Below are positions 3-57,767 of a stretch of 64,000 nt of DNA, one piece after another; position 1 is the stretch's first letter; the number at the start of each line of letters is the position of its first letter. This stretch comes from a virus. The notes under the pieces are model-generated. The model made no database searches. It had not been told where the DNA came from and saw only the letters and a list, made by a program, of their open reading frames with translations. The position numbers and the translations under genes are program-made. The stretch covers positions 13,510 through 77,509 of IMG/VR virus record IMGVR_UViG_3300007775_000157. One strand, given 5' to 3'.

Positions 3-1934
3 TTACCAAGATGCGCAACATTTGATACGGATAAGATAGTTATATTTTGGCGAAATAGCAACAACCTAAATGCTGTTGTCGGAACTGTTTCCGGTACATC
101 AATCTCGTTTGGGACTCCTGTTGTTGGGCCGACGTATGGTCATTCCAACGGGAATATTATTTCCTTAAATAGTGTTAGTGGTATTATTACATATGAGAGA
201 TTTAGTCCGACTTACTCAATGATGGCAGTTCCAATAACTGTTTCTGGCACAACTTTGTCTTTCGGAACAGAAACACAATTGGCAGATACTACTGGTGATA
301 GTGGTGGAGCATTTGCTTCTAAGCTAAATAATTCACAGGCTGTTTTGTCGTGGGATGAAGCAGATGGCTATTCTAGAACGGCGATAGCAACAGTTTCTGG
401 AACAGATTTGACATTGGGGCCAAAAACTGTAATAACAGATTCTGTTGAAGGTTTTGCTGGACAAACACAAGTCTTAGTTTTAGATAGTGATAAAGTAGTT
501 TATGGGTACAGCAGAACTACCCTTGGATTCAACACCAGAATAGGTAGCATATCTGGAACTACCATATCTATGGATGGAGAAACCCAACTAACAGCCGGGG
601 TAACACTTGGTGGGCTTGGGTATCTTAGCGCATCTGGTTTCGTTGCTGGATATACATACAGTACTGTCGGTAGACGGGCACAGGTTGTAGAAGTGCAAGG
701 AACAGATATTTTCGGCGGAACAGAAACAACCACAACATATGCCGGTTCAACTGGCGGTTCAATGACGATGCTGGATGATACGAAACTATTACACGCAACA
801 GATAATGGAGACATAGCGGCTGGTCAATTAATTCAACTGGTCGATATTCTAGCTAGTACGCCAAATGATTATCCAAACGCATCTGGAGCAGATAGATTAA
901 CAGTTCTTCTATGGGAACAGAATTTAACGAACCATATCTCCGAAGTAACTATTCAAAGAGATTATCTGATAGGAATGACTTCTGGATATATTTATCTTGG
1001 AGATGCGTATTGGTCTGGCTCAAGTTTAACGGATGAAATAGCTCTTGCCAACAACGACTATCAACATTTATTTATAGCAGATTTTGAACATGTAGCTTCT
1101 GGGATATGGAATCTAAGTACTTCCATAGATGGTTCTGGATGGGTTAACCATGGAAATCAAACATCTGGCGTACAAACAATAGTATCTGGAACCGCTGATC
1201 CAAGATTTATGGTTCAAAGAGGTAATCCAGAGCAATGGTTTGATGAACTCGCCTTGTGGGCAGGCGACAAATCTACCTTTACTCAATTTACAGACACAGA
1301 ACTTCAAAAGGTATATGACCTTGGAATTATATTCTCTCAAACATTGCCTAAATATGATTCAACTACATATATGACATTATATATGCATGGGCCAGAACCA
1401 GCTTCTGGATCGTCTAATTTATACATAAATGGACATGGACTATTCCCTGGATCGGGAGACCTGTATATGTTCAGTTCTACTATCTATTCCGGGACAAAAG
1501 ACCTGTATGTTAATGGTTCTCCCCCACAAAGTACTGGCACAACAGACTTGTACGTTTCTGGTTCTGGCGTTGCTTCTAGTGGGAGTGGTGTCGGCAGGCC
1601 ACTTGATTGGTTTATTAGATATCCAGATTATAATCCACAACTACTAGGAGTATTTGATCTACCGGCTAGTTCTGTGAATATTAACGTGTGGGACATAACA
1701 AATGGACAAAATATAAAACTGTCCATATCTAATAGTGGATGTTACCATATAGGAGATACTGGTAGGTGGGGATGGTCTACCATCTACTTGTCGTCAAATA
1801 CAACAAATACAAGACAATATTTGTATTCAATGGAATCTAATGTCGGAGAAACTTTCACTGGACAATTCTTCCTTGATGTACCAGAAGGGAACAAATGGAT
1901 TCATCCAAATAACCGTTCGGACTATCTTGTGTAG
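3..1934 (+). CDS. Virion structural protein, 5'-truncated (TVSGT-type repeats, LamG-like domain, LYxxG repeats)
   Basis: The frame is open from position 3, upstream of the listed Met at 219. It has repeated 'TVSGTxLSFG' units. The segment 'HLFIADF..W..S.DG..W...FDELALW' is shared with 28975-30705. Confidence 0.65.
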   Translation, partial: LPRCATFDTDKIVIFWRNSNNLNAVVGTVSGTSISFGTPVVGPTYGHSNGNIISLNSVSGIITYERFSPTYSMMAVPITVSGTTLSFGTETQLADTTGDSGGAFASKLNNSQAVLSWDEADGYSRTAIATVSGTDLTLGPKTVITDSVEGFAGQTQVLVLDSDKVVYGYSRTTLGFNTRIGSISGTTISMDGETQLTAGVTLGGLGYLSASGFVAGYTYSTVGRRAQVVEVQGTDIFGGTETTTTYAGSTGGSMTMLDDTKLLHATDNGDIAAGQLIQLVDILASTPNDYPNASGADRLTVLLWEQNLTNHISEVTIQRDYLIGMTSGYIYLGDAYWSGSSLTDEIALANNDYQHLFIADFEHVASGIWNLSTSIDGSGWVNHGNQTSGVQTIVSGTADPRFMVQRGNPEQWFDELALWAGDKSTFTQFTDTELQKVYDLGIIFSQTLPKYDSTTYMTLYMHGPEPASGSSNLYINGHGLFPGSGDLYMFSSTIYSGTKDLYVNGSPPQSTGTTDLYVSGSGVASSGSGVGRPLDWFIRYPDYNPQLLGVFDLPASSVNINVWDITNGQNIKLSISNSGCYHIGDTGRWGWSTIYLSSNTTNTRQYLYSMESNVGETFTGQFFLDVPEGNKWIHPNNRSDYLV

Positions 1935-1948
1935 TGAAAGGTTGAAAC

Positions 1949-4900
1949 ATGTCATTAGCTTACTACACAGAAAAATTTCAAAGCTGGACAGCTAGTAGTC
2001 CTGGTGTTTGGGAACAGAAGGATTTATCTGCATATTTACCTTCTTCGGGAGATATTACGGCAGAAATCTTAATAGCAAACAGTAACACAGTAGATGCAAC
2101 ATATCCCGTTGGTGTCAGACAACTTGGTACATCTACTCCAAGGCTTGTCAATTTATTCAAATCAGAAAATGCTAGCGCATATAATTGTGTTACTATGCAT
2201 TCTAATGTTGTCAGTGGAAAAGTTGAATCTCAACTTCCTACAGGATGCACTGCATATCTCTTAGGTTATTGGACTGGCGCACAATATGTAGAAAAATTTT
2301 ATAATCCATCAATTTCTACTAATTTTAATACTTGGGCCAATTTAGATTTGAGCGCTGGTGTTGGCAGTGGAGCACCAATAGTAGAAGTCATTTGTGGTAG
2401 GCGAGAATCTGGTAGATATATCGGTGTTCGTTCTGTTGGCAATACAGCAGATAGACGCATAAAAATACATCAGGGTGGAGGACTTTCTAATAAATACAGT
2501 TTTTTCCAGTCTTTTGTTAAGTCTAGCGGAACTACATCAACAATAGAAAGATATGTTCAGTCTTATACCAGTATTAGGGTTCCCATAATAGTAACTATTG
2601 GTTATTGGTCTACGCCCCCTGGGGATTATATAGATAGTTTCGATGAACATATATATGATACTAACAACCCTTCTATTTGGAAAAAAGCTTTAGTCTCAGG
2701 TTTATCTTCCGGAAACGTAGCGTCGTTCGGGTGTTTTAACAATGACGCCTCCAATAGTGTAATACTTGGTATGAGAGAATCTGGTAGTGTTTTATCTAGA
2801 AATCTAACTTTGTGTGACGCTGTGGCGTCTGGCAATAGCGTAGCCGCTAATTTTCATACAAATATTTTGAGCGGGGCAGAATTTGTCAGTGATACGACAG
2901 ACACTATTCAATATGATTTTACTCTTCTAGGGCATTGGGAAAATCTTATAGGACAAATTCATCCGTTAAATGATAATTGTGCTCTGTATACAAACGGAAT
3001 GAATAATAGTTCTGGTCAGTTAAATTTGTATATGAATGGTTCTCTCGGAACCTTGGTTGATACAAGTGCGGATTTTTATATTTTGGGACACAGGTCTACA
3101 CACACACAAAACTTGTACTATTCCGAAGATGCATCGAAGACACTTTTCAGGTCTGATTTACAGGGTGGAAATTCTACGGGAATAATTACAGAGGCCTCTG
3201 GGGCACCACGAAGCATATCTTACGATCATACAACTGAAAAAATTTATGCTACTTTTTCTAATCTAATAGATAATACCATAATTAAAAGCCTTAATCCCGA
3301 TGGATCAAATACCGATCTTCTATATATATCAGGTTCAGTTCAAGCATTTGGAATAGCTCTACACGTAGAAAGTGGATATATTTATTTCACAAATATAGCC
3401 AAGGGGCATGTCGAGAGAATGGGCATAGAAATGCCGAGTGGAGAAACTGCCTACAACAGGACAGACATAGAGAATATAGTTGACTTCTTAAGTACCCCAT
3501 TGGAAATAAAAATAGACCAAGTTAATGACAAACTTTATTACGTCGATGGAATAAGTCCGAATTGTAAAATTAATAGATGCGATCTTGATGGGTCCAATTT
3601 AGAAACCGTAGTCACGTCTGATAACCCGTCTCAATCCATTGGCGGAATAGCACTGGATATATTAGAAAATAAAATATATTTTGGAGTTTATGGAATCGAT
3701 CCAAGGATAATGGTCGCAAACATAGACGGAACAAACAAAGAAATAGTTTATAGTGGTTTCGTGGATGTAGGACGACAACCTCTTTATTTAAGTATAGATT
3801 ACTTACGAAGCCAATTGTATTGGGGTGAAAGAATAGGTCATTTGGTAGAAAAGATAGACCTTGATGGCAGTAACCACGAGATAGTTATTACTGGATCGTT
3901 TACGAACAATCGTATAGCACAAGTTTTGCCAGAGATAAAACCGACAGACATGTTTATACATGGACATCAGTCTTCGTCCGTTTCTGGCAATCTTTATCTG
4001 TATGGCAACGAACAAATTTCTTCTTCCATAGATTTAATAATAGACGGAATAGATATTAGCGTTGACAATATTGATCTCTATGTAAAAGGTTATACGGCAG
4101 AAAATGATCAAATAAATTTGTATATAGACGGCCATGAATCTGTTTTAAGTAATACAAATTTATATATATTAGGTGACGATTTTGCCTCTGTATCTGGCGG
4201 TCATTTATTCGTTCATGGTTTTGATACGGGGACATCTGGATTAAATCTATATATAGATGGTATTAATAGGTCTCTGTCTAGCATGGAATTATTTACACAA
4301 GCTTATGACATAATAAATATTTCTATCGATTTATATATTCATGCATTCAGTAAACTATCAGGATTTGTAAATTTATTAACAAAAGGTTCAGATAGCAAGA
4401 CTAATGAATGTAGTCTGTTTGTCTATGGAATAGACAGTGTCGCAAACCCAGGACAAAATCTTTATATTAATGGTAGTATTATATCAAATTCACAAAATGA
4501 CCTGTATCTATATGGGAAGAAACTTCATTCTGTGTCTGGCGATTTGTATACCCATGGAATATCTATTGAATCTGAGACTATAGATGCTTTCATAACCGGA
4601 CCAAGTGGAAATATTAATTCTTGTACATTAATTTTGTCTGGATTTGATGTAATAACTTCTCTTGTTCCAAATTTATACATACATGGTGTTGAAAGCAAAA
4701 ATGACAACATTAATCTCTTTTTACTTAATTCTGGCCAGATTATTTCTATGTCTGGAAATACGTCTTTTCTTATTAATGGATATGTTGCTAAAACTCTGGT
4801 GTCCTGTCCAACGCTAGACGCAACAGCATCCATACAGATAGGCGACGAATTAATAGAAATATATCAATCTAGGATAGATGCGCTTATTAATCAGATAGGT

Positions 4901-5329
4901 AAAAATGTCTACCTTGAATTTTCACCAATAATCGATCCTTGTCCCAACTGTACATATGACACTTTTAGAAAACGATCAACTGGAATATATATACCTGGTG
5001 GCCCAAGACCATTCGAAAGAGGAAGAAGATGTCCGTACTGCAAAGGTGAAGGATTTTTAGAAACAGAAGTCAATAAATGTATCAAGGCTTTAATCAAATG
5101 GGGTGTTTCTGCTAATCAAAATTTTGGGTTGTCTCTTTCTGAAAGAAAAGGTGTTGTAAGATTAAAAACTCTCTTAACAGATGCGGACGATATAGCCAGA
5201 GCAAAAACGGCGATAGTTAATCACGACATTGTCGATCAAATGAAATTACGGGTTAAATTAATTCGTGGTCCTATACCTGCTGGCTTAAGAGAAGATAGGT
5301 ATGCTCTAAGTTTTTGGAAGTTGGTGTAA
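1949..5329 (+). CDS. Large virion protein: three N-terminal repeats, YWTD-like beta-propeller, 14-15 aa repeat stalk, C-terminal Zn-finger domain
   Basis: 1126 aa ORF with propeller-blade motifs KIYATF/YIYFTN/KLYYVD/KIYFGV/QLYWGE and motifs CPNC and CPYCKGEG. Paralog of 5331-7403. Confidence 0.7.
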   Translation: MSLAYYTEKFQSWTASSPGVWEQKDLSAYLPSSGDITAEILIANSNTVDATYPVGVRQLGTSTPRLVNLFKSENASAYNCVTMHSNVVSGKVESQLPTGCTAYLLGYWTGAQYVEKFYNPSISTNFNTWANLDLSAGVGSGAPIVEVICGRRESGRYIGVRSVGNTADRRIKIHQGGGLSNKYSFFQSFVKSSGTTSTIERYVQSYTSIRVPIIVTIGYWSTPPGDYIDSFDEHIYDTNNPSIWKKALVSGLSSGNVASFGCFNNDASNSVILGMRESGSVLSRNLTLCDAVASGNSVAANFHTNILSGAEFVSDTTDTIQYDFTLLGHWENLIGQIHPLNDNCALYTNGMNNSSGQLNLYMNGSLGTLVDTSADFYILGHRSTHTQNLYYSEDASKTLFRSDLQGGNSTGIITEASGAPRSISYDHTTEKIYATFSNLIDNTIIKSLNPDGSNTDLLYISGSVQAFGIALHVESGYIYFTNIAKGHVERMGIEMPSGETAYNRTDIENIVDFLSTPLEIKIDQVNDKLYYVDGISPNCKINRCDLDGSNLETVVTSDNPSQSIGGIALDILENKIYFGVYGIDPRIMVANIDGTNKEIVYSGFVDVGRQPLYLSIDYLRSQLYWGERIGHLVEKIDLDGSNHEIVITGSFTNNRIAQVLPEIKPTDMFIHGHQSSSVSGNLYLYGNEQISSSIDLIIDGIDISVDNIDLYVKGYTAENDQINLYIDGHESVLSNTNLYILGDDFASVSGGHLFVHGFDTGTSGLNLYIDGINRSLSSMELFTQAYDIINISIDLYIHAFSKLSGFVNLLTKGSDSKTNECSLFVYGIDSVANPGQNLYINGSIISNSQNDLYLYGKKLHSVSGDLYTHGISIESETIDAFITGPSGNINSCTLILSGFDVITSLVPNLYIHGVESKNDNINLFLLNSGQIISMSGNTSFLINGYVAKTLVSCPTLDATASIQIGDELIEIYQSRIDALINQIGKNVYLEFSPIIDPCPNCTYDTFRKRSTGIYIPGGPRPFERGRRCPYCKGEGFLETEVNKCIKALIKWGVSANQNFGLSLSERKGVVRLKTLLTDADDIARAKTAIVNHDIVDQMKLRVKLIRGPIPAGLREDRYALSFWKLV

Positions 5330-5330
5330 T

Positions 5331-7403
5331 ATGGGAATAGCATACTACGAAGAATCATTTACTACTTGGCCAGCTACAGACCCAAGCGGTTGGACCACCA
5401 AAGATTTATCTGCGTATCTTCCGACATACGATGATATTACGGCAGAAATAGTCATAGCAAACTCAAATACTGCCGTTGGTAGTTATAGTGTTGGGGTTAG
5501 AACCAATGGGTCAACCTTAGACAGAAGATTCAATCTTGTTCCGGCATTATCTAACGGAGGCGCTAATTGCGCCACAATGAATGTTCAGGTTACGAGCGGT
5601 GCCATAGAATATTATGGACCATCCGGGGTCGATTTTTACCTAGTAGGATTTTGGGCCGGTCCCAAGTATGTAGAGTTAGATACCAGACTTTCTCCTAGCG
5701 GGACAAATTCTTGGCTTACAATGAATCTGTCGGATGGCGGTGTTCCTAGTGGTGCATTGACAGAAATAATGTGTGCCCAGGGATGGGGTGGTCTGTTGAT
5801 GGGTAATCGATCTATCGGTAATACGATAGATAGACGTATCCGCATGGAAATAGGCAGTGATTCTTTCGAGAGATACAATACTTGGACATCCTTTGTTCAG
5901 AGTAGCGGCTATAATGCTGCGATAGAACACTATGTTCAAACATACATTTTGAACAATAAATTTTATATATTAGGATACTGGGAAGTTCCTCCCGGAGATT
6001 TTACTGATGTCTTTCAATTGGACGAAGGAAATCCAACCTCTAACAATACATGGGAGGGCGTAGACATTTCCGGTATTCCGTCTGGAGCAGTTTGCTCTTT
6101 TGTTATGACAAATAGCGACATATCGACAAGTCGTGTATTAGGCATTCGGGAATCAGGAACATCTCTTGAAAGAAAAATAGACATAAGATTTGCCAATAAT
6201 GCAACATATAAACTCGCTTGTTGTATGCATGTCATATCTAATTCTCCGATAGAAGCATTTTCAGAGGCAGCTACTGGTGTTAACGATGATTTCACACTAG
6301 CTGGATATTGGGATAATTTTGCTACCGTTCCATTACAAACTACTGTGTTTGATAATGCCGATCTGTTTATTGAAGGCATGTCTATCGGGATATCACAACA
6401 GGTTGACCTATATATGGACGGACTTGGGTCTAGTTCTGGCATAGTCAATCTTTTCACAATAAGTCATGATACAAATAATGATAATATTAATGCTTATGTT
6501 TCTGGATCAGTTCCAGCAGTATCTTCAAATATGAACATGTTCGTTTCTGGCCTTGGATTATTTTCTGACACTCTTAATTTGTTTGTAAATGGAGACATAA
6601 TCAGGGCGAATAATATTGATTTATATCTTGATGGATTTAGTTCTAGTTCTGGCCTTACGAATATTTTTATAGAAGGTTCTGAGACACTAAACGACAGTCT
6701 TTCTATGTATGTGTCCGGATCAGTCAATATGTCGTCTGGTGACTTGAACCTGTATTTATGCGGAGGTTCCTTTGCGTTTGCGTCTGAAAATCTGTTTATA
6801 AGTGGTCCATTCTCCACTTCTGTATCTGGAACTTGTGACTTAATCGTTAATGGGATAGTTCCGATTCCAGGAGTCTCTTGTCCAATTTTAGACTCCACCG
6901 CTTCAATACAAATAAAATCTAGTTTAATACAAATCTATCAGTCTAGAATAGATGCACTCATTAACCAGCTTGGGAAAAATGTTTATCTTGAATTTGATCC
7001 AATAATAGAACCTTGTCCAAATTGTGAATTTGATACAATTAGACACAGATCAAAAGGTATATATATAGTTGGTGGTCCTGTTCCTTTTGAGAGAGGAAGA
7101 AGGTGTCCTTACTGTAAAGGAAATGGTTTGTTGGAAACTCCTGTAAATAAGTGTATAAAATGTTTGCTTAAGTGGAACCCTAGAGATGCTGAAAATCATG
7201 GAATATCTCTGTCCCAAGGGAAGGGTATCGTTCGTCTGAAAACGTATCTAACAAACGCAGACGATTTATCTAGAGCAAGAACGGCATTAGTTAATCATGA
7301 TATTGTGGATCAAATGAAATTAAAAGTTAAGCTATTGGAAGGCCCTATTCCCGTAGGGTTAAGAGAAGACAGATATTGTATAAGTTTTTGGGAATTGTTA
7401 TAA
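5331..7403 (+). CDS. Virion protein, paralog of 1949-5329 lacking the propeller (neck/collar fibre candidate)
   Basis: Nearly identical C-terminal ~175 aa (YQSRIDALINQ.GKNVYLEF...CPYCKG.G...GLREDRY) and a homologous N-terminus. Confidence 0.7.
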   Translation: MGIAYYEESFTTWPATDPSGWTTKDLSAYLPTYDDITAEIVIANSNTAVGSYSVGVRTNGSTLDRRFNLVPALSNGGANCATMNVQVTSGAIEYYGPSGVDFYLVGFWAGPKYVELDTRLSPSGTNSWLTMNLSDGGVPSGALTEIMCAQGWGGLLMGNRSIGNTIDRRIRMEIGSDSFERYNTWTSFVQSSGYNAAIEHYVQTYILNNKFYILGYWEVPPGDFTDVFQLDEGNPTSNNTWEGVDISGIPSGAVCSFVMTNSDISTSRVLGIRESGTSLERKIDIRFANNATYKLACCMHVISNSPIEAFSEAATGVNDDFTLAGYWDNFATVPLQTTVFDNADLFIEGMSIGISQQVDLYMDGLGSSSGIVNLFTISHDTNNDNINAYVSGSVPAVSSNMNMFVSGLGLFSDTLNLFVNGDIIRANNIDLYLDGFSSSSGLTNIFIEGSETLNDSLSMYVSGSVNMSSGDLNLYLCGGSFAFASENLFISGPFSTSVSGTCDLIVNGIVPIPGVSCPILDSTASIQIKSSLIQIYQSRIDALINQLGKNVYLEFDPIIEPCPNCEFDTIRHRSKGIYIVGGPVPFERGRRCPYCKGNGLLETPVNKCIKCLLKWNPRDAENHGISLSQGKGIVRLKTYLTNADDLSRARTALVNHDIVDQMKLKVKLLEGPIPVGLREDRYCISFWELL

Positions 7404-9033: not shown

Positions 9034-9036
9034 TTG

Positions 9037-10521: not shown

Positions 10522-10530
10522 GGAGTGTGT

Positions 10531-44581: not shown

Positions 44582-44593
44582 ATAAGAACCTTT

Positions 44594-47424: not shown

Positions 47425-49275
47425 TTAAATAAGTTTTTTGATATCTTCTACGATAAAACTACCGTTTTTCTTTGTTCCGTAGACCAAACAAATGGTATCT
47501 TCTTTGCATAGACCTTTTAATTTCTGGAACGAATCAGGAAAAACAACAGCGTGATCTATCGAATACGTAGAATCAGAAATGGTGAGGAAGCACATCGGCT
47601 GTCCAGGATTTCTACCCCTTTTTGTCTTTGTATGTTTGACTAAGTCTATAATAGCACAAACAACGGCACTAGTATTATTGAACATCTTTGCTACGTCAAG
47701 ACATGTATGCGTGGCCAAACTATCATCAGCATCGTCCGCTTGTGAGCAAGACAAAGAAATACCTAGGAAATGTTTTTCTGCTGTTGCATTAGCTCTGTTG
47801 GTGTCGAAAATATCTGGTTCGAGTTTTTTTGCCTTTTGTGCCATTATATTTCTTCGTCTATCGCTTGAACAAGGTGGTTTAACGACAGATTGTTGATATC
47901 CATTTTTATTGAGTATGTCTGTTATCTGTTTTTTTGTTAACTTGGTAAATGAATTAATCCAGTCATTTGAGTTTTGTTCTAATGCAAATTTAACATTTTG
48001 TTCTCCCACACATATTGCTGTATTTTGCTCTATTTTGTTTCTCATGTACGTCTGTGCAACAGAAACTAATTCGGACTTAGACATCTGTGTGATAGATTTA
48101 GATTTCTCTCCAGGTGATTCCGACATTTGTTGTAATATCTCTCTGGTTGTCATATTAGATTTTCTTAGTTTGTCAAAGAAATATTGTTTTTCTTTATCTG
48201 TTAAACCTTTTATTTCCTGTTTTTTCCCTTCGTGATCACGGGTCGTAGTCCCAAGTATAGTTTCTAACTCTCTGACCATTTCATTCCTGTGCATTCCATA
48301 ACAATCGCACGCACCAGATTTGATTAATGCTATTCCGACATTTCTATGAAAGTGAGGAACTGAAGCCAAAAAGTCTGGCCAAGTCTTGAGGCCAATTTGC
48401 TGATCAAGACTATTGTCTATCGCACCAGTAATTTTAGTGATAGCGGATTGACCAACCCCTCTGATGTGAGACAATCCATAAGCTATCCCGACAGAAGGAT
48501 TTTCTATCATTCTGAAATTAGTATTGCCTCTTCTTATGTCCGGAGGAAATACGTCAATTCCAAATAATCTAGCATCTTGAACCAATCTGTATATTTCTTC
48601 TTTGTGATCACTCTTGTACTGAGAGTATATCAAAAAACTCGTGAAAAATTCTTGGGGGAAATGACATTTTAGCCAAGAAGTCATGTACCCGGTTGTCGCA
48701 TAACATATTGCGTGAGATTTATTGAAACTGTAGCGTTGACACTTTTCAATCCAGTGGAAAATTTCTTCTGCTATGTTGCTGTCTATATTTGAATGATTTT
48801 TACATCCTTCGACAAATATGTTTTTGAGTTTTTGGATTACTTCTGGTAATTTTTTGCCAATACCTTTCCTGAGAGTGTCTGCCTCAATAGGGTTGAATCC
48901 AGCAAGGTCCGTGGCGATAGACAATGCTTGTTCTTGGTAGACCATGATACCGTGTGTGTCGCCCAGAATTGTCTCTAGTTTAGGATGAAGATAACTCGGT
49001 TTTTTTCTGCCAAATTTAATGTCGACATATTCTTGGCTTAATCCTGCTTCTAAGGGTCCAGGTCTCAAGATAGAAATCAAAACCCCAAGTTCGCTAATAC
49101 TTTTAGGCTTTACTTTCTTAGCCCAATCTTGACCAAGCTTTTTCTCCAATTGAAATATTCCTACTGTATATCCACTAGATATCAACCTCCAAACAGAGGA
49201 ACAGTCTCTTGGGATTTTCTTTATGTCGAAATTACCTTTGTCTACTACACAATTGCATTGCGAAAACTTTATCAT
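47425..49275 (-). CDS. dnaE: DNA polymerase III alpha, C-terminal half (fingers, HhH, OB)
   Basis: TVGIFQLE, LRPGPL, VYQEQ, ADTLRKGIGKK, YSFNKSHA, and OB motif KTKRG..MCFLTISD. Confidence 0.92.
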   Translation of the reverse strand: MIKFSQCNCVVDKGNFDIKKIPRDCSSVWRLISSGYTVGIFQLEKKLGQDWAKKVKPKSISELGVLISILRPGPLEAGLSQEYVDIKFGRKKPSYLHPKLETILGDTHGIMVYQEQALSIATDLAGFNPIEADTLRKGIGKKLPEVIQKLKNIFVEGCKNHSNIDSNIAEEIFHWIEKCQRYSFNKSHAICYATTGYMTSWLKCHFPQEFFTSFLIYSQYKSDHKEEIYRLVQDARLFGIDVFPPDIRRGNTNFRMIENPSVGIAYGLSHIRGVGQSAITKITGAIDNSLDQQIGLKTWPDFLASVPHFHRNVGIALIKSGACDCYGMHRNEMVRELETILGTTTRDHEGKKQEIKGLTDKEKQYFFDKLRKSNMTTREILQQMSESPGEKSKSITQMSKSELVSVAQTYMRNKIEQNTAICVGEQNVKFALEQNSNDWINSFTKLTKKQITDILNKNGYQQSVVKPPCSSDRRRNIMAQKAKKLEPDIFDTNRANATAEKHFLGISLSCSQADDADDSLATHTCLDVAKMFNNTSAVVCAIIDLVKHTKTKRGRNPGQPMCFLTISDSTYSIDHAVVFPDSFQKLKGLCKEDTICLVYGTKKNGSFIVEDIKKLI

Positions 49276-49280
49276 ACAAT

Positions 49281-49288: not shown

Positions 49289-49315
49289 TTCAAATAACAA
49301 AACCATTTTCAGAAA

Positions 49316-50137
49316 TTAGAATTTTTCATACGCAGATGCTGTAACCCTAAGTAGATTGCCTATATCCGGAGACATTGCAGATAATCTTTGAAATTTCTGT
49401 GTTTTCACAGATTCGATTATCTGGTCTTTATGGTACTGATAATTATTAGCAAAACTTAATCCCCTAATCCCCTGATGTTCTGCTAGCCTAATATGAGTTC
49501 CATGATGATTTGATGTAACAAGAGAACTCCAGTAAGACTCAGAAAGATTCGGGGGTGGGGTACCAAGAGAAGATTCTTCTATCATTTTTAACAGAAGTTG
49601 TTCATTGAAACCTTGGCTAGGCAAATCTATTGAACCGTTTTTCAAAAGCGCTCTGTACTTACACATAATAGGTCTCATAATGTCGAACCACTCCTTTGGC
49701 TGTACTACATGAATCCCGCACACTCTTCTTGGAGCAGTTGGGCGAATAAAATTGCTGTAAGGAAGACCAGTTTTTTTACAATGATTGAGATGCTGGTCCA
49801 TGTAAGACGGTTCTTCTCTGTATATCGCCATGTCAATATCCCCTATGGATAAACATTTGAATTCATTGAATTCTTCGAGAAAAGTTAGCCATCTTAGACA
49901 TTTTATTTGTTTTCCGCTTGTAAGAAGATATTCTGGGAAAGCATTTTCTATAACGCGAAAATTCCCAGACAGAAGATTCATCATATCTTTAACATTTTGT
50001 TTAAGCTGTCTATCAACCATTACTATTTTTCTAGCTTCTGGATATGCCCTGTTCAAAAAATATAAATACCAGGGTATATACTTTTGATAAGGATCATTTG
50101 CCACAGACATAAAACACATTTCATTCGATTTGCTCAT
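49316..50137 (-). CDS. Putative glycosyltransferase (GT-A-like, DxD)
   Basis: LRW...IGDIDM...NEQLL; gene context. Confidence 0.5.
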   Translation of the reverse strand: MSKSNEMCFMSVANDPYQKYIPWYLYFLNRAYPEARKIVMVDRQLKQNVKDMMNLLSGNFRVIENAFPEYLLTSGKQIKCLRWLTFLEEFNEFKCLSIGDIDMAIYREEPSYMDQHLNHCKKTGLPYSNFIRPTAPRRVCGIHVVQPKEWFDIMRPIMCKYRALLKNGSIDLPSQGFNEQLLLKMIEESSLGTPPPNLSESYWSSLVTSNHHGTHIRLAEHQGIRGLSFANNYQYHKDQIIESVKTQKFQRLSAMSPDIGNLLRVTASAYEKF

Positions 50138-50146
50138 TTGATACTC

Positions 50147-51094
50147 CTACAAGTCTATACCCAAAGCCTTGAATTGAGAACTAATATCGGACCACATATT
50201 CTCTGTCATACCTCCGTCGTCCATCAGGCGATAATAAGATTGATATAGTCCGTATGCATTTTCAGCTATACTTTTTGTCTCATCGATATTTTTCATTGCT
50301 ATATCGCATACTTCCTCTAGATTGGATAGGTCTGGTTTTATCTCTAAATAATCTCTTCCAGCGACTAATTTGTTCATCCATTGAAAATCGTCCAAAGAAC
50401 ATGTAATAATGCACGATTTTAATCCCATACTTTCAAAATGTCTATATGTCAGAACACTGTTCCCAGGGAGACAAAGAGACACAAGAGAATTATTAATCAT
50501 TCTCAAGTACATCGGCCTAGGAACACGACCAGTTTCTACTCCAGAAATATCTCTTTCCGCTCCTGGTTCTTGTCCGACTATGCCCCCACGAAAAATAGGT
50601 TTGTCATACAGCAATCTGCAAGCATTGATTCTAAGGTTATTCTCTGTTTTTAAATCTCCCGTTGGTAGACCGTAAAACAACACACAAGATTTCTTTATGT
50701 CTGACGGTTTCGGTAAACCCCCTATCAAAAAAGGTTGCATTGTCATTCTTTTCGCATATATTCTTGGGTCATAATCGTTTGGATTTTTTGTCCACTGTAT
50801 TTTAGCAAACGCCTTTGCTTTGTTTATTACGTCATCTGGCAAACCTCTCCCGTTCATGTTCGTATTGAACGAACTCCAATCTCCAAGAGAAGTTAGGATA
50901 AGTTGTCCTTTATATTTCGACAATTCTTCTATAATTTTTTCTGGTATATGATCTACTCTCATGCAATCTAAGATATACAAGTCTGCGACAGAAGAATCTT
51001 GCGTAAAAAAATGTCCATACCTTTTTAGTGTTGGGATCAAAACTTGCATTCTCAGCTTTGCGGAGATGTGGGTAGTTACAATTTTGATTTTCAT
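50147..51094 (-). CDS. Putative glycosyltransferase (GT-B C-domain, CgeB/GT90-like)
   Basis: YLRMINNSLVSLCLPGN...YRHFE...DYLEIKPDLSNL...IAENA. Confidence 0.65.
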   Translation of the reverse strand: MKIKIVTTHISAKLRMQVLIPTLKRYGHFFTQDSSVADLYILDCMRVDHIPEKIIEELSKYKGQLILTSLGDWSSFNTNMNGRGLPDDVINKAKAFAKIQWTKNPNDYDPRIYAKRMTMQPFLIGGLPKPSDIKKSCVLFYGLPTGDLKTENNLRINACRLLYDKPIFRGGIVGQEPGAERDISGVETGRVPRPMYLRMINNSLVSLCLPGNSVLTYRHFESMGLKSCIITCSLDDFQWMNKLVAGRDYLEIKPDLSNLEEVCDIAMKNIDETKSIAENAYGLYQSYYRLMDDGGMTENMWSDISSQFKALGIDL

Positions 51095-51206
51095 CTATTC
51101 AAATCCTTCCAAGTTCTATTGTATTTAATATCGCAGACAGTGCTTGTACTCATGTCAAATTCCCTAGCTACTTCAACATTCGTTTTACCAACAGATATCA
51201 TTCTCT

Positions 51207-51806
51207 TTATTTTTTGGCGTCATTTAGATCGATCGATTTACCTTTGCGAGCAGAAATCATGTCTTTTACTTTGTGTTTCCAATTTTTATTGCATTTTATT
51301 TTACTGATAGTAGTTTTATGCACATGAAATTTTGTAGCTATATTAATGATAGATACCCCGTTTTCAATAAGCTCTATTATATCATCAACATCTTCTTCTG
51401 TTAATTTTGATCTTGGACTTTTGGACCCAGCAATAGTTTTTTCGTGCAGAATTCTATCTTGTGCATTTTCGTATGGTGTTCCATATCTCAGATTAGATAA
51501 TGCATTATGCAATTTGTTCCCATCCAAGTGTCTGGTTTCGTAATTTTTTGGAATAGGGCCAAGGAAAGCTTCTCCAACCAATCTATGTATGTTTATCTGT
51601 TTTCTTTTCTTGTGGTAGTACAAAATCACATATAAATACCCATTATTGTCAATTCTTTGTTTCAGTTTATACCATCCAATATTCTTCCTGGCTAAACTTA
51701 TGACATCCCCGTTCGTAGAAACACGGTATTTACCATTGTAACCCGGTATGTCTCTCCAAAGACACTTATCCATCGTCAATAATGGCCTTTCTGAATAAAC
51801 CTCCAA
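51207..51806 (-). mobile_element. NUMOD4-HNH homing endonuclease (frameshifted before a second HTH that would end at 51091)
   Basis: WRDIPGYNGKYRVST.G, HRLV, RHLDGNKLHN..SNL and an HTH. Confidence 0.9.
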
Positions 51807-52527
51807 GGAACGTATCGCTCTCCATTATTTGCTCTTTGGTCATAGACAAGAATTTACTGTTAGACTGTCTGAACATTTCGTGGAATAGCATACATCCAAA
51901 TGAGTCCTGAATTATGTATCTATCCATGGGTTCTTTGCCCTCGAAACGGAAAGCTTCCCATGATGCTATCGGCATCATCAATCTGTGGTCTAGGTGATGG
52001 TATCTATGTTTCGACACGGCTTGTCTAAGAATGCCGGGACCAAGAGACCCCCATTTGAATACATGTCCTGGTTTTTGAAGATTAATACAATGATCTATTA
52101 AAGAGACTGCTTTAGATATTATTAATCCATTCTTTTTAGAAACTATGAATCCACTTTCTGGTTGTCCATATTTTAGTGTTGGAGAAGCTGTCGCAACAAG
52201 GTCTATCTCATCTGTAAGTAAATTTAACATAGGTTTCAAACTTTTAAACAAAATCAAATCACTATCGAGCCAAACTCCACCGTGCTCTTTTAATAGGTGA
52301 TATCTCAGATAATTAGATTTATTGTTAATTTGAGATATCGTAAAAAATTGTTCAGATATATTTGGAAGAAATTGCTTGACGTTATCTGTATTTACCATTT
52401 TGATTTCAAAATCTTTTGAACAATGTTTTTGGATAGTGGCCCAGCAAAGCTGTATATATTCCGGGGGAGATATACACCCTGGTTTGTTATCCCAATACAA
52501 CCAAATAGATTCTTTTCTTTTATCCAT
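51766..52527 (-). CDS. Capsular polysaccharide synthesis / GT32-like glycosyltransferase
   Basis: IWLYW, SNYLRYHLL..HGGVWLDSD and LGP. Confidence 0.85.
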   Translation of the reverse strand: MDKRKESIWLYWDNKPGCISPPEYIQLCWATIQKHCSKDFEIKMVNTDNVKQFLPNISEQFFTISQINNKSNYLRYHLLKEHGGVWLDSDLILFKSLKPMLNLLTDEIDLVATASPTLKYGQPESGFIVSKKNGLIISKAVSLIDHCINLQKPGHVFKWGSLGPGILRQAVSKHRYHHLDHRLMMPIASWEAFRFEGKEPMDRYIIQDSFGCMLFHEMFRQSNSKFLSMTKEQIMESDTFLGGLFRKAIIDDG

Positions 52528-52536
52528 CGATCTTTC

Positions 52537-53112
52537 CTATCTAACAACAGACATCAAAACCATGTGTCTATTGTCTCCCATGTATATGTGAAGGTTTTTA
52601 ATATTCATTTTTTCCATTTTTTGCCTTAATTCATCTTCTTTGTGTCTCTGCGACGGACTTTTCCTGATATCAAAATCTATTAATGTATCAGAAACTTTAT
52701 TATATTCTCCGCTATCAAGCAGATCGTTAACAACTTCACATTCTGATCCTTCGCAGTTGAGCTTCAAGAACACTTTGTCGTCTTGCGATATATTGTCTCT
52801 AAACCAATCAGATGCCCTGATGAATTTACACATTGCAGTTCTGATTTCTGGATTGCAAGTAGTTTGATAATCCTTATGAACAGTTCCTCCCTGACTACCC
52901 TCGTTTTCTAGCTCCATATCACATTCCCTAGACCATAAACCAGCTTTGACGATAGTAACCTTTGGGTTGTCAGCGAATTTTGCTTCCAAAATCTTCTGAC
53001 AAGACGGAGCGGGATCGAATCCAAAGATATGATCAATCTTGAATCTAGGCCTAAGTAACATCTCTATGGTTTGTCCGTGGTGACTTCCTACATCAATAAA
53101 GATTCTTCGCAT
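52537..53112 (-). CDS. FkbM-family methyltransferase
   Basis: FIDVGSHHG, GFDP and LKLNCEGSE. Confidence 0.85.
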   Translation of the reverse strand: MRRIFIDVGSHHGQTIEMLLRPRFKIDHIFGFDPAPSCQKILEAKFADNPKVTIVKAGLWSRECDMELENEGSQGGTVHKDYQTTCNPEIRTAMCKFIRASDWFRDNISQDDKVFLKLNCEGSECEVVNDLLDSGEYNKVSDTLIDFDIRKSPSQRHKEDELRQKMEKMNIKNLHIYMGDNRHMVLMSVVR

Positions 53113-53954
53113 TACTTTCTCCAATCCGTATAGACGAATCTAGCCAAAAAGCAGTCGTTATGTATATGAAAAGCGAATTTCAATTTGTCCAACAAACCCT
53201 TCTTCCTCAGTTGTTTTAGCGCGAATTCATGATTGCTTGGGACTCCTTCTCTCAAGAATTTATATATATCCAAATACAGGTCTCCAAACTTGTCCATGAT
53301 TTCTGATCCACCAAAGAACCAATAATCGGCAAGTGCTGGATAATGCGGTGTATGTGGGTATCCCGTATGTGTGTGTTTTAGTGTTTTATCGTTCTTCTTG
53401 TCCCATCCGTGGAAAAACCAATCTTCATGTCTGATACCAGCCCCATTAGGCTGTTTCATTACGCACCAGTTGGACGCATAGAAGCTCTCTGGGTCGAACT
53501 GATCAAAGTGTACGTCCGTCATCCAGGCAACGTCAAAACGGCCTATCATGACCATATCGTACTTGAAGTTTTTCTTCTTCTCGTATTCCCTTTTCAATTG
53601 CATACACTTAAATATACTATACCATCTGGCTATGGTTATTTGAGTCTTAGAGGTTACTCCGTCTGGATAATTTTTATCCGAAATAGTCCCGTCTGTGTTG
53701 AATACGGGATCGAGTTCGAACAATGCGCCTTTTGGAGTATAGGCATCTCTGAGTTCTTGTTCGACAGAAACGCTTGGAGTGTGCATAAATACATCTACGT
53801 CGTTATGGGCAAATATGTGCTTCTTGTAATGTTCTAATCCTCTCTCCCATTCAACCGGCGTACGTTTTCCTGTCTTGCCATCCCACATTTGTCCACCGAC
53901 GACCTTTTTTCCAGGATGAGAAGCCATGCCCGTTAAACACAAGGCTATTTTCAT
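53112..53954 (-). CDS. Putative glycosyltransferase-like protein
   Basis: MKIALCLTG, DVFMHT, YDMVMIGRFD and DYWF. Confidence 0.6.
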   Translation of the reverse strand: MKIALCLTGMASHPGKKVVGGQMWDGKTGKRTPVEWERGLEHYKKHIFAHNDVDVFMHTPSVSVEQELRDAYTPKGALFELDPVFNTDGTISDKNYPDGVTSKTQITIARWYSIFKCMQLKREYEKKKNFKYDMVMIGRFDVAWMTDVHFDQFDPESFYASNWCVMKQPNGAGIRHEDWFFHGWDKKNDKTLKHTHTGYPHTPHYPALADYWFFGGSEIMDKFGDLYLDIYKFLREGVPSNHEFALKQLRKKGLLDKLKFAFHIHNDCFLARFVYTDWRK

Positions 53955-53956
53955 TA

Positions 53957-54532
53957 TTATATCCTTTCTAGTATTTTTATGATTTTTCTTTCTTCGCCGC
54001 ACGGAGTTTTATCTGAAAATTCTATTATTTCAAACAGAACTTTAAACTCTTCTACCCATTCGTAAAATGCTTTTTTCTCGTGGTCATCAAACTTTGGCTT
54101 GTGTCTATAGAACCATTCATCGAAGACTATAATTGTCCCATTTACTATGCAATCGTTCAGAGACCAGAGTATTTCTTTTGCAGAACTGTATAGGTCAGAA
54201 TCAATGTGCAATAGAGCTATGGGTTGTGATATTTTGAGATAATCTGGTATTGTATCGGAGAACCATCCAACGAAGAACTTTACTCCGTCTACATTCGGCA
54301 CAACACCTCCTGTCGAAAAATATTCTGCTGGGACGACAACCTTACCATCTTTGTCCACCCATGGCTCTGGCAATCCTTTGAAGGAATCAAAACCAAACAC
54401 AGAGAAAGATTCGTCAAGAGATTCTCTTATAGTTCTAATGGTTCCCCCTCTACAAACACCAAACTCTAAAACGTGTTTGTAGTCATTGTTGATAAGGGTC
54501 AGACCATGTTGTAAACTAGATTTGTTAGCCAT
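53957..54532 (-). CDS. TylF/MycF-family O-methyltransferase
   Basis: LEFGV..G, GFDSFKGLPE, GWFSDT, LHIDSDLYSS and FDEW. Confidence 0.85.
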   Translation of the reverse strand: MANKSSLQHGLTLINNDYKHVLEFGVCRGGTIRTIRESLDESFSVFGFDSFKGLPEPWVDKDGKVVVPAEYFSTGGVVPNVDGVKFFVGWFSDTIPDYLKISQPIALLHIDSDLYSSAKEILWSLNDCIVNGTIIVFDEWFYRHKPKFDDHEKKAFYEWVEEFKVLFEIIEFSDKTPCGEERKIIKILERI

Positions 54533-56114
54533 GAGATTGTTCCTTAAGCAGATTGTTCAACATATATTTTCCTAGATAAAACAACATTTCAGCATAGGGA
54601 GTGTGGTGTAGGCAAGCTATGTTTAAATATATTAATGCTGTTAATATTTTTACTTTATTAAGATCGTAATCATTTTTTTCTATATAAGTTCCAAGCCATT
54701 CTTCGCAATCAATAAGAGTCTGTTTTCTCATTAATTCGAAATTAACAATAGGCAAAGATTCATTTATGTCGTCTATATAATTTACTTCATACATATTGTT
54801 ATTAATAACAGAATGAGATACGATAAGTCCGTGCCACAGCTTGGCCAAGTCGTAATAAATATCTCCATATTTATCTAATCCACCAAAATCTTGTCTCCAA
54901 TCTAGCAGACAAAAGGAAGCAATTGTATCTATTATATTCTCGAAGTGCAAATCTCCATGGACCCTGCCAGTATGTCCTTCTGAAAGATGTGTCCAATCAA
55001 CCTTAGACAAAAGAGCCTCTATTGTCGGGACTCTGACACCGTTTATTACGTGCTCAGAATCCTTCTTGTCGAACCTACGGAAATATTCAGAGACTCTTGC
55101 TCTAGTCTTGTCTTCGTAGAATTTTCGATAAACTTCTATTTGTTTTTTCGATGGACACGTTTGTTTTCCCCATAGTTTTTCTATGAAGAACATAAGATTT
55201 TTCAATCTTGGGACATTTACTGTTTTAGAAAAAATTTCTCCTTCAACCATATTGTACGAATACATATGTTCTGTTTGTCCTATTATCTCAGGGACGTATC
55301 CCTCAAGCAGTTTAGCTCTTTTGACGCGATCTGATATAAAGGTTTTGTCTGTAGAAAATTTGATAACTTTGCCATTACAGAACCATATATGTTCCTGCTC
55401 TTTAGGTAGAATGTTCATGTCGTTTCCGGTAGATAAAACTTTGTTAGCGTGTTTTAGAGCGGCGGTGGTTCCTGTGTCATACCAACTAAATTCCTTCCCT
55501 TTTAACAATCCACTCTCTGCCATTGCGGACAGCGAAAAAGATTCTCCCTGATTCTTCGTACCATTTTCCAAAGCCAATCTCATTCTATCCCAAAATATCT
55601 TATAATCTTTGATGCCACAGATACCTATATATGATGGTGCTTCTGTATGTATTCCCTTTTCCTCAACTTTGCTAACCAACTGATTATCCCAGGAATCAAA
55701 CACTATCGATCTATAATCCTGGCCAGCAGGCACTGAAGCATATCCTATCCAGTTGTGGTCTGGCGGCGGTACGCTTTCTTCTACTATGGCGTCGTTCGTG
55801 AAAAAGATAAATGGACATTGGAGCATTTGTTCATAATCGCACAGGTCTGATGTTAAACCATTCCTGTTCGCCCAAACGAAGGTGAATTTTCTTTCTGGAT
55901 AAGCTAATTCTAGAAATTCTTTAACTAACTCCCCCTTGTATCCTAGGTCAATTATAATATCAACATCTTTACTAAATTTCTCTATTATATAAGACAAGAT
56001 TGGTTTGTTCGCCACCGGAACTAATGTCTTGTTAACATGGTCGCAGTGATTACCAAGTCTGGACCCAACGCCTGCTGTCGGTATTATAACTTTGTATTTT
56101 TTATTCTCTGCCAT
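54525..56114 (-). CDS. Sugar-phosphate nucleotidyltransferase fused to APH/choline-kinase-like domain
   Basis: IPTAGVGSRL..NKTL...KPIL and WYDTG; kinase motifs HGDLHFENI, LDWR and YDLAKL. Confidence 0.85.
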   Translation of the reverse strand: MAENKKYKVIIPTAGVGSRLGNHCDHVNKTLVPVANKPILSYIIEKFSKDVDIIIDLGYKGELVKEFLELAYPERKFTFVWANRNGLTSDLCDYEQMLQCPFIFFTNDAIVEESVPPPDHNWIGYASVPAGQDYRSIVFDSWDNQLVSKVEEKGIHTEAPSYIGICGIKDYKIFWDRMRLALENGTKNQGESFSLSAMAESGLLKGKEFSWYDTGTTAALKHANKVLSTGNDMNILPKEQEHIWFCNGKVIKFSTDKTFISDRVKRAKLLEGYVPEIIGQTEHMYSYNMVEGEIFSKTVNVPRLKNLMFFIEKLWGKQTCPSKKQIEVYRKFYEDKTRARVSEYFRRFDKKDSEHVINGVRVPTIEALLSKVDWTHLSEGHTGRVHGDLHFENIIDTIASFCLLDWRQDFGGLDKYGDIYYDLAKLWHGLIVSHSVINNNMYEVNYIDDINESLPIVNFELMRKQTLIDCEEWLGTYIEKNDYDLNKVKILTALIYLNIACLHHTPYAEMLFYLGKYMLNNLLKEQSHG

Positions 56115-56427
56115 AATCATCCTCCACTCTAACTACATCGTCATTTTCAGGAGTTGATGCTTCTAGATATACTGTATCTTCAAGGCCTTCCATCCTGTGA
56201 ATAGTCCCGGCATGTATTGTGTATGAGTCCCCAGGAGACAACGTGATTGTATTTTTGTCACAGGTTAGCAACAGTAGGCCACTTAAAACATATACGGTTT
56301 CTGTTTTATGTACATGGTATTGTAAACTGCACCGAGCATCTTTGTTCATATATAATTTTTTAACCATATATTTTTCCTGAACAGTAATTAGAATTTCTTT
56401 GCCCCAAGGTTTTTCCGTTATCAACAT
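56101..56427 (-). CDS. Cupin (mannose-6-phosphate isomerase type II C-terminal-like)
   Basis: EKPWG, SLQYH..KTE, HR and DVVRVEDDYGR. Confidence 0.88.
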   Translation of the reverse strand: MLITEKPWGKEILITVQEKYMVKKLYMNKDARCSLQYHVHKTETVYVLSGLLLLTCDKNTITLSPGDSYTIHAGTIHRMEGLEDTVYLEASTPENDDVVRVEDDYGRE

Positions 56428-56431
56428 AATT

Positions 56432-57430
56432 CTACCCCATAGAAAATAAATAATGTTCAATTAATAGCCACATATACTGCTGAATGGCTTTTTTTGTAGC
56501 CCAATTTCTTTCTAATAATTTCTTCATCAAACGCCTATATTCATCATCGGCAAAATGATAATGACCAGCCAACATAAGCTGTTCCATTTCGTCTTGGGAA
56601 TTTGACCACTTCTTCCAATTTCCAGATCGAACAACCAATTCCTTAAATGGTTCTATGTCTATACCATAAATAAGCGATTGTAATATAGTCGTTTCTGTTT
56701 GTATTACACCAAGTTGTGGCGCTATGTTGAATGCATCAACAATTCCATTTCTCTCTTTTATTTGTTTTTCATTGAGATAGTCTGCATTGTGTTCTTTTAA
56801 CTTAGCTCCATTTTCGTGCAATGCTTGGGCCATACTTTTTGCTAAATTTCTGTTAAAAGTTCCAGAGTTTTTATATCTAGAAACTAAACTTCCGGTTTGC
56901 ACGACATAGAATATTGGGTTTGCTATTTCTTGACAAGACTTTAGGTCTGAGACTATTCTGTCTACATTATCTTCCGGAATTCCAACGTTTTCGTCTGTTC
57001 CAATCTCAAACAATACGTCTGATCTTATATCTATCGCATAAGACATCATTTCTTTTGTCAATGAAAGTCTTTGTTTGTGAGAATCGCATTTAGCTTTGCA
57101 CAAATCTATATGTATCAAATCGAATCCATGTTCCAGGTCGTTTTTTATGGTTTTTTTTGTAGCTTCAAGATCATTGATGTTTTCCCATTTTGGACCAAAG
57201 CCAGGCCCACAGTGGTCCCTACAAATAAGCACTTGTGATCTAGGGAATTTTCTTCGTAGTTTCTCGACCATTTCCATATATTCAGATGTCGTACAAACAT
57301 ATCCACTGTCGGTATCTATCTGATTGCGAGAAGCTATCAACATTAATGGCTTATTGAAATTGTGAGAATATTTAAAGACAGATTCTATAATCTCGGCACT
57401 CATTGGTCCTATTGCAAGGTTATATGTCAA
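56432..57430 (-). CDS. GatZ/KbaZ-family protein (hexose-6-phosphate epimerase-like)
   Basis: LIASRNQID..GY, RDHCGP, GFDLIHID, EIGTDE, KEHNADY and NIAP. Confidence 0.8.
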   Translation of the reverse strand: MTYNLAIGPMSAEIIESVFKYSHNFNKPLMLIASRNQIDTDSGYVCTTSEYMEMVEKLRRKFPRSQVLICRDHCGPGFGPKWENINDLEATKKTIKNDLEHGFDLIHIDLCKAKCDSHKQRLSLTKEMMSYAIDIRSDVLFEIGTDENVGIPEDNVDRIVSDLKSCQEIANPIFYVVQTGSLVSRYKNSGTFNRNLAKSMAQALHENGAKLKEHNADYLNEKQIKERNGIVDAFNIAPQLGVIQTETTILQSLIYGIDIEPFKELVVRSGNWKKWSNSQDEMEQLMLAGHYHFADDEYRRLMKKLLERNWATKKAIQQYMWLLIEHYLFSMG

Positions 57431-57767
57431 CGTTTTTCATTCCTTTGTTTCTTTTAAGGTTAAATGCAACTGCCATTTTTTCTTTTGACTTAGGTTTGAT
57501 ATCGTTAATGATTATTCTTTGTCCTCTTGGTAAATTCATAATTAATTGATTATAGAACAAGCCAAATTTACACAATTCTTTTTCTGTAAAATTTCTTAGA
57601 CTTTCTGGTCTTCCAGTCGTTAGAATTATTGTGTATCCTTGATTGTGCCATTCGTAGAACTTTTCTTGGACTCCAGGTAATATGCTTGCCTCTTCTGACA
57701 TTATTTGTTTTATATTTCCATAATGATAAAAAACGCACCCATCTATATCACAGAATATTGTTTTCAT
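57420..57767 (-). CDS. HAD-family phosphatase
   Basis: IFCDIDG, TTGR and IND. Confidence 0.8.
   Translation of the reverse strand: MKTIFCDIDGCVFYHYGNIKQIMSEEASILPGVQEKFYEWHNQGYTIILTTGRPESLRNFTEKELCKFGLFYNQLIMNLPRGQRIIINDIKPKSKEKMAVAFNLKRNKGMKNVDI

Follow-up and report, generated by a model that had tools for sequence, protein, structure and literature searches.

The window analysed here, the whole of a 64,000-nucleotide stretch of DNA, covers bases 13510-77509 of a 77.5-kb viral record (IMG/VR record IMGVR_UViG_3300007775_000157). Two of its features are the subject of this report, an excess of the dipeptide Ser-Gly (SG) in predicted outer proteins, and a large set of genes for glycan synthesis. 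A preliminary description of the window had connected the two, proposing that the phage O-glycosylates exposed SG sites of its own particle with a methylated glycan that it builds itself. The record appears to be part of a larger genome of ~165 kb, that of an uncultured phage with a tape measure protein, because its completeness is estimated at 46% (CheckV) and its TerL is 73-80% identical to that of IMG/VR contigs of 160-180 kb, two of which carry terminal repeats. Identity of TerL to cultured phages does not exceed 29%. The genes that matter for the SG excess are listed below; coordinates refer to the window, and those marked "genome" to the whole record.

1-1934, + strand: p765, 3' part of the gene, the start lying 363 nt upstream of the window (genome 13146)
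1949-5329, + strand: p1126, with an N-terminal domain paralogous to p690, a YWTD propeller at residues ~430-660 and a long run of 14-residue repeats
5331-7403, + strand: p690, a p1126 paralogue that lacks the YWTD insert, 14-residue repeats at residues 336-505
9105-10220, + strand: 371-residue protein with a mild SG excess (9 SG and 7 GS against 4.0 expected, p=0.01), no family match
24698-28975, + strand: tape measure protein (PHROG tape-measure families, E 3e-33)
28975-30705, + strand: p576, with a ConA/LamG-like jelly roll at residues 1-223 and a 14-residue repeat region at residues ~240-576
36928-37563, + strand: 211-residue protein with a modest SG excess, paralogue of its 204-residue neighbour at 36244-36858

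SG and GS pairs were counted in each protein and compared with the number expected from its own Ser and Gly content, p values being obtained by shuffling. The hand counts of the preliminary description were all reproduced exactly by this recount, and the enrichment that it had suspected holds after correction for composition in four proteins, p765 (765 residues), p1126 (1126 residues), p690 (690 residues) and p576 (576 residues), with an observed/expected ratio (O/E) of 2.3-2.8 and a shuffle p<0.0005. p576 contains 25 SG and 10 GS against 9.3 expected, p690 contains 17 SG against 6.9, and p1126, which was missing from the earlier list, 25 SG against 10.8. The part of p765 that falls within the window (219-1934) holds 20 SG, with O/E and p within the limits just given, and its full-length open reading frame (ORF) in the whole record holds 28 SG against 10.4. 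Pooled over the four proteins, 95 SG were found versus 37.4 expected (2.5x, z 9.4), which makes SG the most enriched of all dipeptides, ahead of LY, ID, NL, YI, LF and DL. GS stood at 1.15x, and NG, DG and TG were not enriched. The Ser residues of SG use all six Ser codons in proportion, which rules out a DNA-word or codon origin and places the bias at the protein level.

The idea that structural proteins in general are rich in SG needs correction. The bias is a property of the four appendage-type proteins, and it is not shared by the head proteins (1.29x, capsid and portal having no excess) or by the tail core (0.90x, tape measure included). The tape measure protein, which had indeed been described as poor in SG, has 5 where 10.0 are expected. 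The 211-residue protein at 36928-37563 has 8 SG against 4.1, an O/E of only 1.9 (p=0.036). Other appendage genes reached 1.47x, with GS also up at 1.37x, and non-structural genes 0.8-0.9x. For comparison, the fibre and baseplate proteins of T4 gave an SG ratio of 1.00x. This rules out the excess as a generic property of fibres, and makes the SG motif lineage- and module-specific.

The four SG-rich proteins are paralogous, modular and all-beta. p765 is laid out as a beta-propeller of 51-52-residue repeats, a ConA-like sandwich and a short stretch of 14-residue repeats. Its residues 50-560 were modelled by AlphaFold2 (AF2) with a predicted local distance difference test (pLDDT) of 78, as a propeller followed by the ConA-like sandwich, and this modelled arrangement would resemble that of GH43 enzymes and sialidases. 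p690 and p1126 are 41% identical over their N-terminal halves and 51% over their C-terminal halves. The YWTD propeller of p1126, an insertion relative to p690, is six-bladed and matches animal LRP2, LRP4 and LRP6 (summed E 7e-47). A confident model was obtained for residues 1-223 of p576 (VIA Z 15 to lectin-like domains), and the structural matches of this jelly roll include carbohydrate-binding modules of phage baseplate and Dit proteins. p576 and p765 have repeats in common. They also have in common an N-terminal peptide of 28 residues (28975-29064 and genome 13161-13244, 61% identity), followed by different domains; this peptide may serve to dock both proteins onto the particle. All four proteins contain 14-residue repeats in tandem, whose core reads [D/N]-L-[Y/F]-[I/V/L]-x-G. 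Searches of the SG-rich proteins against Pfam and PHROGs returned only the YWTD repeat of p1126 and, for p576, a marginal match to a PHROG that has no functional annotation; a PDB sequence search with the p576 family profile gave no match, and neither p576 nor p1126 had a match in cultured phages by megablast and tblastn. Their folds and gene positions indicate that the four proteins are most likely peripheral, as receptor-binding fibres or decorations.

The SG excess is located at conserved positions of the repeated modules, that is the 52-residue propeller blades, the 14-residue fibre repeats and the lectin-like jelly rolls. p765 has five propeller repeats of 51-52 residues with the signature (V/I)-S-G-T-x-(I/L)-x-(F/L)-G, and in its model the Ser of each of the five repeat SGs ends a strand, after which come a two-residue G-T loop and the next strand. 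Tight turns, which make up 19% of positions in this model, hold 8 of its 17 SG, and strands, with 49% of positions, hold 2; in the modelled jelly roll of p576, all 5 SG are at strand ends or loops. The expectation that SG sites would map to turns and loops was borne out in these two models. Among 22 aligned homologues of p576, SG is present in at least half of the sequences at 16 columns, versus 2 columns for GS, and when the 16 columns are removed the mean residual O/E of SG is 1.2. Where Ser is substituted, it is by Asn (40), Asp (35) and Thr (35). The SG ratio of every one of 36 p576 homologues is ~2-3.6. The flanks of SG are hydrophobic, of the type [V/P/A]-S-G-x-V with V, P and A enriched at positions -1 and +3, and acidic residues account for a fraction of 0.03-0.11 at positions -4 to +5, for a background of 0.10.

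The 52-residue repeat family has more than 3800 matches, mostly in proteins of ~850 residues. It is viral, cellular genomes being nearly devoid of it (2 matches in 185,579 species genomes, one of them on a 4-kb contig of a metagenome-assembled genome). Across 1023 units taken from 108 members, Gly follows a Ser in 1012 cases and a Thr in none. Two contigs carrying this family (54 and 57 kb, 95% and 98% complete) gave no glycosyltransferase (GT) of families GT4, GT2 or GT9 when searched for PF00534, PF00535 and PF01075. The cultured Lentibacter phage ICBM2 (40.9 kb), whose homologue gp49 is encoded in the tail-fibre gene cluster, shows the same motif and has an SG ratio of 1.69x, likewise has no annotated GT and no match to PF00534 or PF00535. 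The preliminary description had tied the SG bias to the GT clusters, and had taken retention of the bias in phages lacking them as an argument against its proposal. Such retention is what we observed, for the 52-residue module only: phages without GT4 or GT2 keep its Ser-Gly hairpin.

The 14-residue repeat family, with 307 clusters, has a pooled SG ratio of 2.06x versus 1.10x for GS. SG falls below 1x in 22 of 149 members, which are built of Gly-free units such as xSERSLYLxG and NDNIDLFIHG; proteins P0180, P0267, P0286 and P0227 exemplify such variants. This pattern fits subfamily-specific units amplified by repeat expansion, Gly-free members amplifying SER in the same way. It is equally compatible with selection on Ser-Gly. 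We found no GT-less phage with SG-poor 14-residue repeat proteins: the viral relatives of P0267 are without the repeat, and the relative of P0286 belongs to the same GT-bearing clade. All homologues of the 14-residue repeat and of the lectin-like domain that have an examinable genome sit in GT-bearing phages. SG proteins and GTs are found together in 7 of 7 near-complete relatives, the two relatives without GT4 being fragments of 24-32%, so that co-occurrence within the clade is uninformative.

The glycan genes, with the two DnaE halves that flank the second block, are as follows.

40363-41160, - strand: GT2-family glycosyltransferase (PF00535, E 2.4e-9)
42372-46294, - strand: three tandem GT4 glycosyltransferases of 339, 396 and 566 residues (PF00534/PF13692)
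47425-49275, - strand: DnaE C-terminal half, with finger, HHH and OB parts (PF17657, E 2.5e-44; HHH_6)
50147-51094, - strand: weak GT-B-like candidate (PF13524, E 0.006, below cut-off)
51766-52527, - strand: GT32-like (DXD) glycosyltransferase (PF05704, E 2.6e-13; PF04488, E 1.3e-8)
52537-53124, - strand: FkbM-family methyltransferase (TIGR01444, E 4e-12, above cut-off)
53957-54532, - strand: TylF-type O-methyltransferase (PF05711, E 4.7e-14)
54525-56120, - strand: sugar-1-phosphate nucleotidyltransferase (NTP_transferase-type N-terminus) fused to an APH-type kinase (PF01636)
56101-56460, - strand: PMI-type cupin (PF01050, E 5e-14)
56432-57430, - strand: GatZ/KbaZ-like protein (PF08013, E 2.6e-10)
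57420-57809, - strand: HAD phosphatase (PF03767, E 8e-8)
57781-60126, - strand: DnaE N-terminal half, PHP and Pol3 alpha (PF07733, E 3.6e-63; PHP, E 4.6e-40)
genome 2-643, outside the window: GT-like ORF cut by the contig end
genome 901-1968, outside the window: Gmd, GDP-mannose 4,6-dehydratase, directly upstream of TerL
genome 7173-7811, outside the window: second FkbM methyltransferase, in the head module, flanked by the portal candidate and the capsid genes

Searches against Pfam and NCBIfam upheld most of the earlier inventory, namely the GT2, the three GT4, the GT32-like enzyme, the FkbM and TylF methyltransferases and the sugar-activation enzymes. Four to five neighbouring ORFs of the blocks, among them a third methyltransferase of the earlier count, have no family support. 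The Gmd match (396 bits) is slightly below the NCBIfam equivalog cut-off and well above that of Pfam. Altogether there are ~20 glycan genes, all soluble by prediction: in the 23 proteins encoded at 38.3-57.8 kb no convincing membrane span was found, and one protein, 41112-41891, is borderline hydrophobic (2 windows at a Kyte-Doolittle value of 1.67). All near-complete relatives (n=7, 160-180 kb) have Gmd and the GT4 trio, the latter in unchanged order, and Gmd lies close upstream of TerL in both relatives for which both positions were mapped. The large GT4 of this window (44594-46294, 566 residues) is intein-free. In relatives G008 and G005 (L091:1887-5843, L092:2842-5727) it contains one or two inteins with LAGLIDADG endonuclease domains, which speaks in favour of a core gene that is conserved. 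In PDB, the GT4 enzymes have generic neighbours (TarM, PglA, BshA), and the large GT4 and the GT32-like protein have none; the best NCBIfam and PDB neighbours of the GTs are exopolysaccharide (EPS), teichoic-acid and PglA-type enzymes. The phage encodes nucleotide-sugar synthesis together with several soluble GTs and sugar methyltransferases, and this soluble machinery covers sugar activation by itself and is kept throughout the clade. Its gene content suggests that it would build, stepwise and in the cytoplasm, a methylated glycan of the mannose/6-deoxyhexose type.

As to location, Gmd and a GT-like gene are directly upstream of TerL and one FkbM gene is in the head module. Both blocks of the window lie among the replication genes, on the same strand as these, with SSB, a sigma-like gene and the two DnaE halves as neighbours. 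The 8.5-kb glycan block II (49316-57809) is located between the DnaE halves, as is an HNH/NUMOD4 homing endonuclease (51207-51806). GT block I is separated from SSB by a weak sigma-70 region-2-like protein (46313-46909, below the Pfam cut-off), and a Whirly-like protein (38357-38833, also below the Pfam cut-off) stands at the opposite end of this block.

We lean slightly towards an explanation in which the SG excess and the glycan genes are both real and have no demonstrated connection, SG being the signature of a structural hairpin. Ser would close a beta-strand and Gly would open a two-residue G-[T/S/N] hairpin loop, which would match the classical type II' pattern; the motif, fixed at conserved positions, would then have been multiplied by tandem repeat expansion and gene duplication. 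Virion glycosylation is plausible nevertheless, and we tentatively suggest that the acceptor of the glycan could be phage particle proteins, without a specific choice of SG serines. Several points weigh against the structural explanation. The 14-residue repeat SGNxDLYIxG was considered as sole cause and rejected: with these repeats masked, SG is still at 2.57x outside them, versus 2.38x inside, and no single repeat therefore explains the excess. The region of 14-residue repeats could not be modelled, its monomer giving a pLDDT of ~30 in AF2, probably owing to an obligate oligomeric state. Since Gly-free units exist, SG is optional for the 14-residue fold. Moreover, where these units do have a Gly, the preceding residue is Ser in 596 cases versus Thr in 47, and we cannot explain so strong a preference for Ser before Gly by the geometry of turns only. 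Residues in a turn are exposed as well, and structural and modification roles are compatible. Finally, the GT-less phages were searched for few GT families, and a host enzyme could act on them.

A rival explanation is the preliminary proposal, spelled out here as a soluble GT that would read the Ser of exposed phi-S-G hairpins in the fibre proteins, with other GTs and the methyltransferases extending and capping the product to give a glycan coat on the appendages. We consider it unlikely. It does account for an enrichment that is strong and specific to SG, with none for TG, NG or GS, and for the location of SG at turns and loops. It would also explain why SG, optional in the 14-residue fold, is still present in 52% of the units of SG-rich members, with Ser far above Thr. 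The machinery is cytoplasmic, soluble and clade-conserved, with part of its genes in the head/packaging module, and repeat-directed Ser glycosylation by soluble enzymes has precedents in BAHT acting on AIDA-I/TibA, and GtfA (a GT4) on serine-rich adhesins. However, phages without GT4 or GT2 have a Ser-Gly hairpin in the 52-residue repeat that is just as invariant, and conserved columns, not shifting sites kept at a constant density, explain most of the excess. A variable Ser changes to Asn or Asp as often as to Thr. No homologue of GT9/BAHT was found (PF01075 absent from the record and the complete relatives, with a single sub-threshold match of 13.5 bits in one relative), nor of GT14 (PF02485 absent from the record and two complete relatives; a control search matched 2 of 14 genomes). 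In G023, a relative from the same clade that has the GT trio, SG-rich and SG-poor 14-residue repeat proteins coexist. Capsid and tail candidates have neither an SG bias nor a Ser/Thr-rich tail, the last 40 residues of six such candidates being 5-20% Ser plus Thr, no higher than the whole protein. SG as a sequon read by phage GTs finds no support, and the fixed module positions and the conservation of the motif in GT-less phages are evidence against it. A variant in which the structural turn doubles as sequon, the intein-invaded core set of soluble GTs and methyltransferases putting a methylated deoxyhexose glycan on the Ser of exposed phi-S-G hairpins in fibre and lectin-like appendages, is in our view distinctly unlikely; if true, it would be for phages what BAHT glycosylation of autotransporter repeats is for bacteria.

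Two other explanations leave the SG bias unrelated to the glycan genes and give the glycan another destination. The GTs may serve to remodel an envelope polymer of the host (lipopolysaccharide O-antigen, capsule or teichoic acid) through the undecaprenyl-linked pathways of the host, for instance in a superinfection block or to keep progeny off debris. GT4, GT2, GT32-like, FkbM, TylF and Gmd genes are the typical content of an O-antigen or capsule locus, and the EPS, teichoic-acid and PglA-type neighbours mentioned above point the same way. Yet no flippase, polymerase, priming phosphoglycosyltransferase, ligase or clear membrane protein is found among the 23 ORFs, and a conserved clade core with intein-invaded genes would be unusual for accessory host-conversion genes, so that a host-envelope target seems to us rather unlikely. 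Alternatively, the GTs could hypermodify the phage DNA, as in T4-like and other phages. Both blocks are embedded in the replication module, on the replication strand, and nucleotide-pool enzymes are encoded, a MazZ-like protein and a dNMP phosphatase. This is nevertheless very unlikely: no hydroxymethylase of the ThyA family (PF00303) was found in 5 records, including this one and two complete relatives, PurZ is absent from the record and from four complete relatives, and ~nine GT-like genes with sugar O-methyltransferases and a GDP-mannose dehydratase are more than any known DNA glycan calls for. A search for PF12851 (Tet/JBP) also gave no match, though its control search matched nowhere either. 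Targets other than particle proteins, envelope polymers and DNA keep the rest of the probability.

Glycosylation of capsid and tail proteins in mycobacteriophages is, to our knowledge, the only proven phage case. There, as Freeman et al. reportedly described in 2023 in Cell Host Microbe, capsid and tail proteins are the acceptors, through Ser/Thr-rich C-terminal tails, and the GT genes are said to be few and placed beside structural genes. The present phage differs in having ~20 genes, mostly in the replication module, and capsid/tail candidates without a Ser/Thr-rich tail. PMC12619734 places the virion glycans of mycobacteriophages on the C-termini of capsid and tail-tube subunits; virion O-glycosylation in Che8, Corndog and Myrna is cited in PMC12619734 and PMC12801897. 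The likeness would lie in phage-encoded soluble GTs, in some phages with methyltransferases, whose cytoplasmic activity is directed at the particle of the phage itself.

Chloroviruses and mimivirus encode glycosylation machinery as well (GMD/GMER and A064R of PBCV-1). They resemble this phage in having a virus-encoded GDP-mannose 4,6-dehydratase, several cytoplasmic GTs and sugar O-methyltransferases, which would yield a methylated deoxyhexose glycan without the endoplasmic reticulum or membrane machinery of the host. Unlike this tailed bacteriophage, they are giant viruses of eukaryotes with proven acceptors (N-glycans of Vp54, fibrils). In the systems formed by TibC/Aah with TibA/AIDA-I, and by GtfA/GtfB with serine-rich repeat adhesins, soluble cytoplasmic enzymes glycosylate a recurrent Ser of a beta-structure repeat. 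They are the closest mechanistic analogue of the sequon idea, but the phage has no GT9/BAHT homologue, its GT4s are only generically similar, and its tracts are not Ser-rich low-complexity sequence. The preliminary description had also drawn on the Ser-Gly xylosylation of animal proteoglycans, which is carried out by XylT, a GT14 enzyme. This analogy fails, as the dipeptide is all that the two have in common: the phage has no GT14, and its SG pairs have hydrophobic flanks in place of acidic flanks or an SGxG context. For the hairpin, two-residue Gly-[Asn/Ser/Thr] type II' beta-hairpins are known in all-beta repeat proteins. Here too the two-residue loop begins with Gly and continues with T, S or N, between hydrophobic strands and in a fixed repeat phase, but the occurrence of Ser before Gly in 1012 of 1023 units exceeds what we can explain by general turn statistics.

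Should the fibres of phages prove to be glycosylated at a motif that can be read, sequence would suffice to predict their glycan coats, and there would be grounds to reinterpret the host range of phages, their recognition by immune systems and their stability in the environment. The SG excess on outer tail proteins is at least in part a signature of the fold and also occurs without phage GTs, so that it is unfit on its own as a marker of virion glycosylation. Apart from SG, the lineage stands out by its ~20 conserved genes for a cytoplasmic glycan, some of them intein-invaded, with one block lodged between the halves of the DNA polymerase. Phage-encoded glycan gene sets are of a known kind, and the present one is a further case, together with a structural SG motif.

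The clade is one of large, uncultured, siphovirus-like phages of soil and sediment. DNA of this phage is present in soil-metagenome runs, and no RNA dataset was found among the sequencing runs that contain it. The phage encodes its own DnaE, primase/helicase and SSB. A MazZ-like dATP/dGTP diphosphohydrolase (PF18909) and a dNMP phosphatase are encoded at 61625-62074 and 16754-17350, respectively. The adjoining genes for the 204- and 211-residue proteins (36244-36858 and 36928-37563) are paralogues with 33% identity over 191 residues. In many relatives the TerL match begins at query residue ~101-201 and covers more DNA than the match length requires, which suggests the presence of inteins or introns in their TerL genes.

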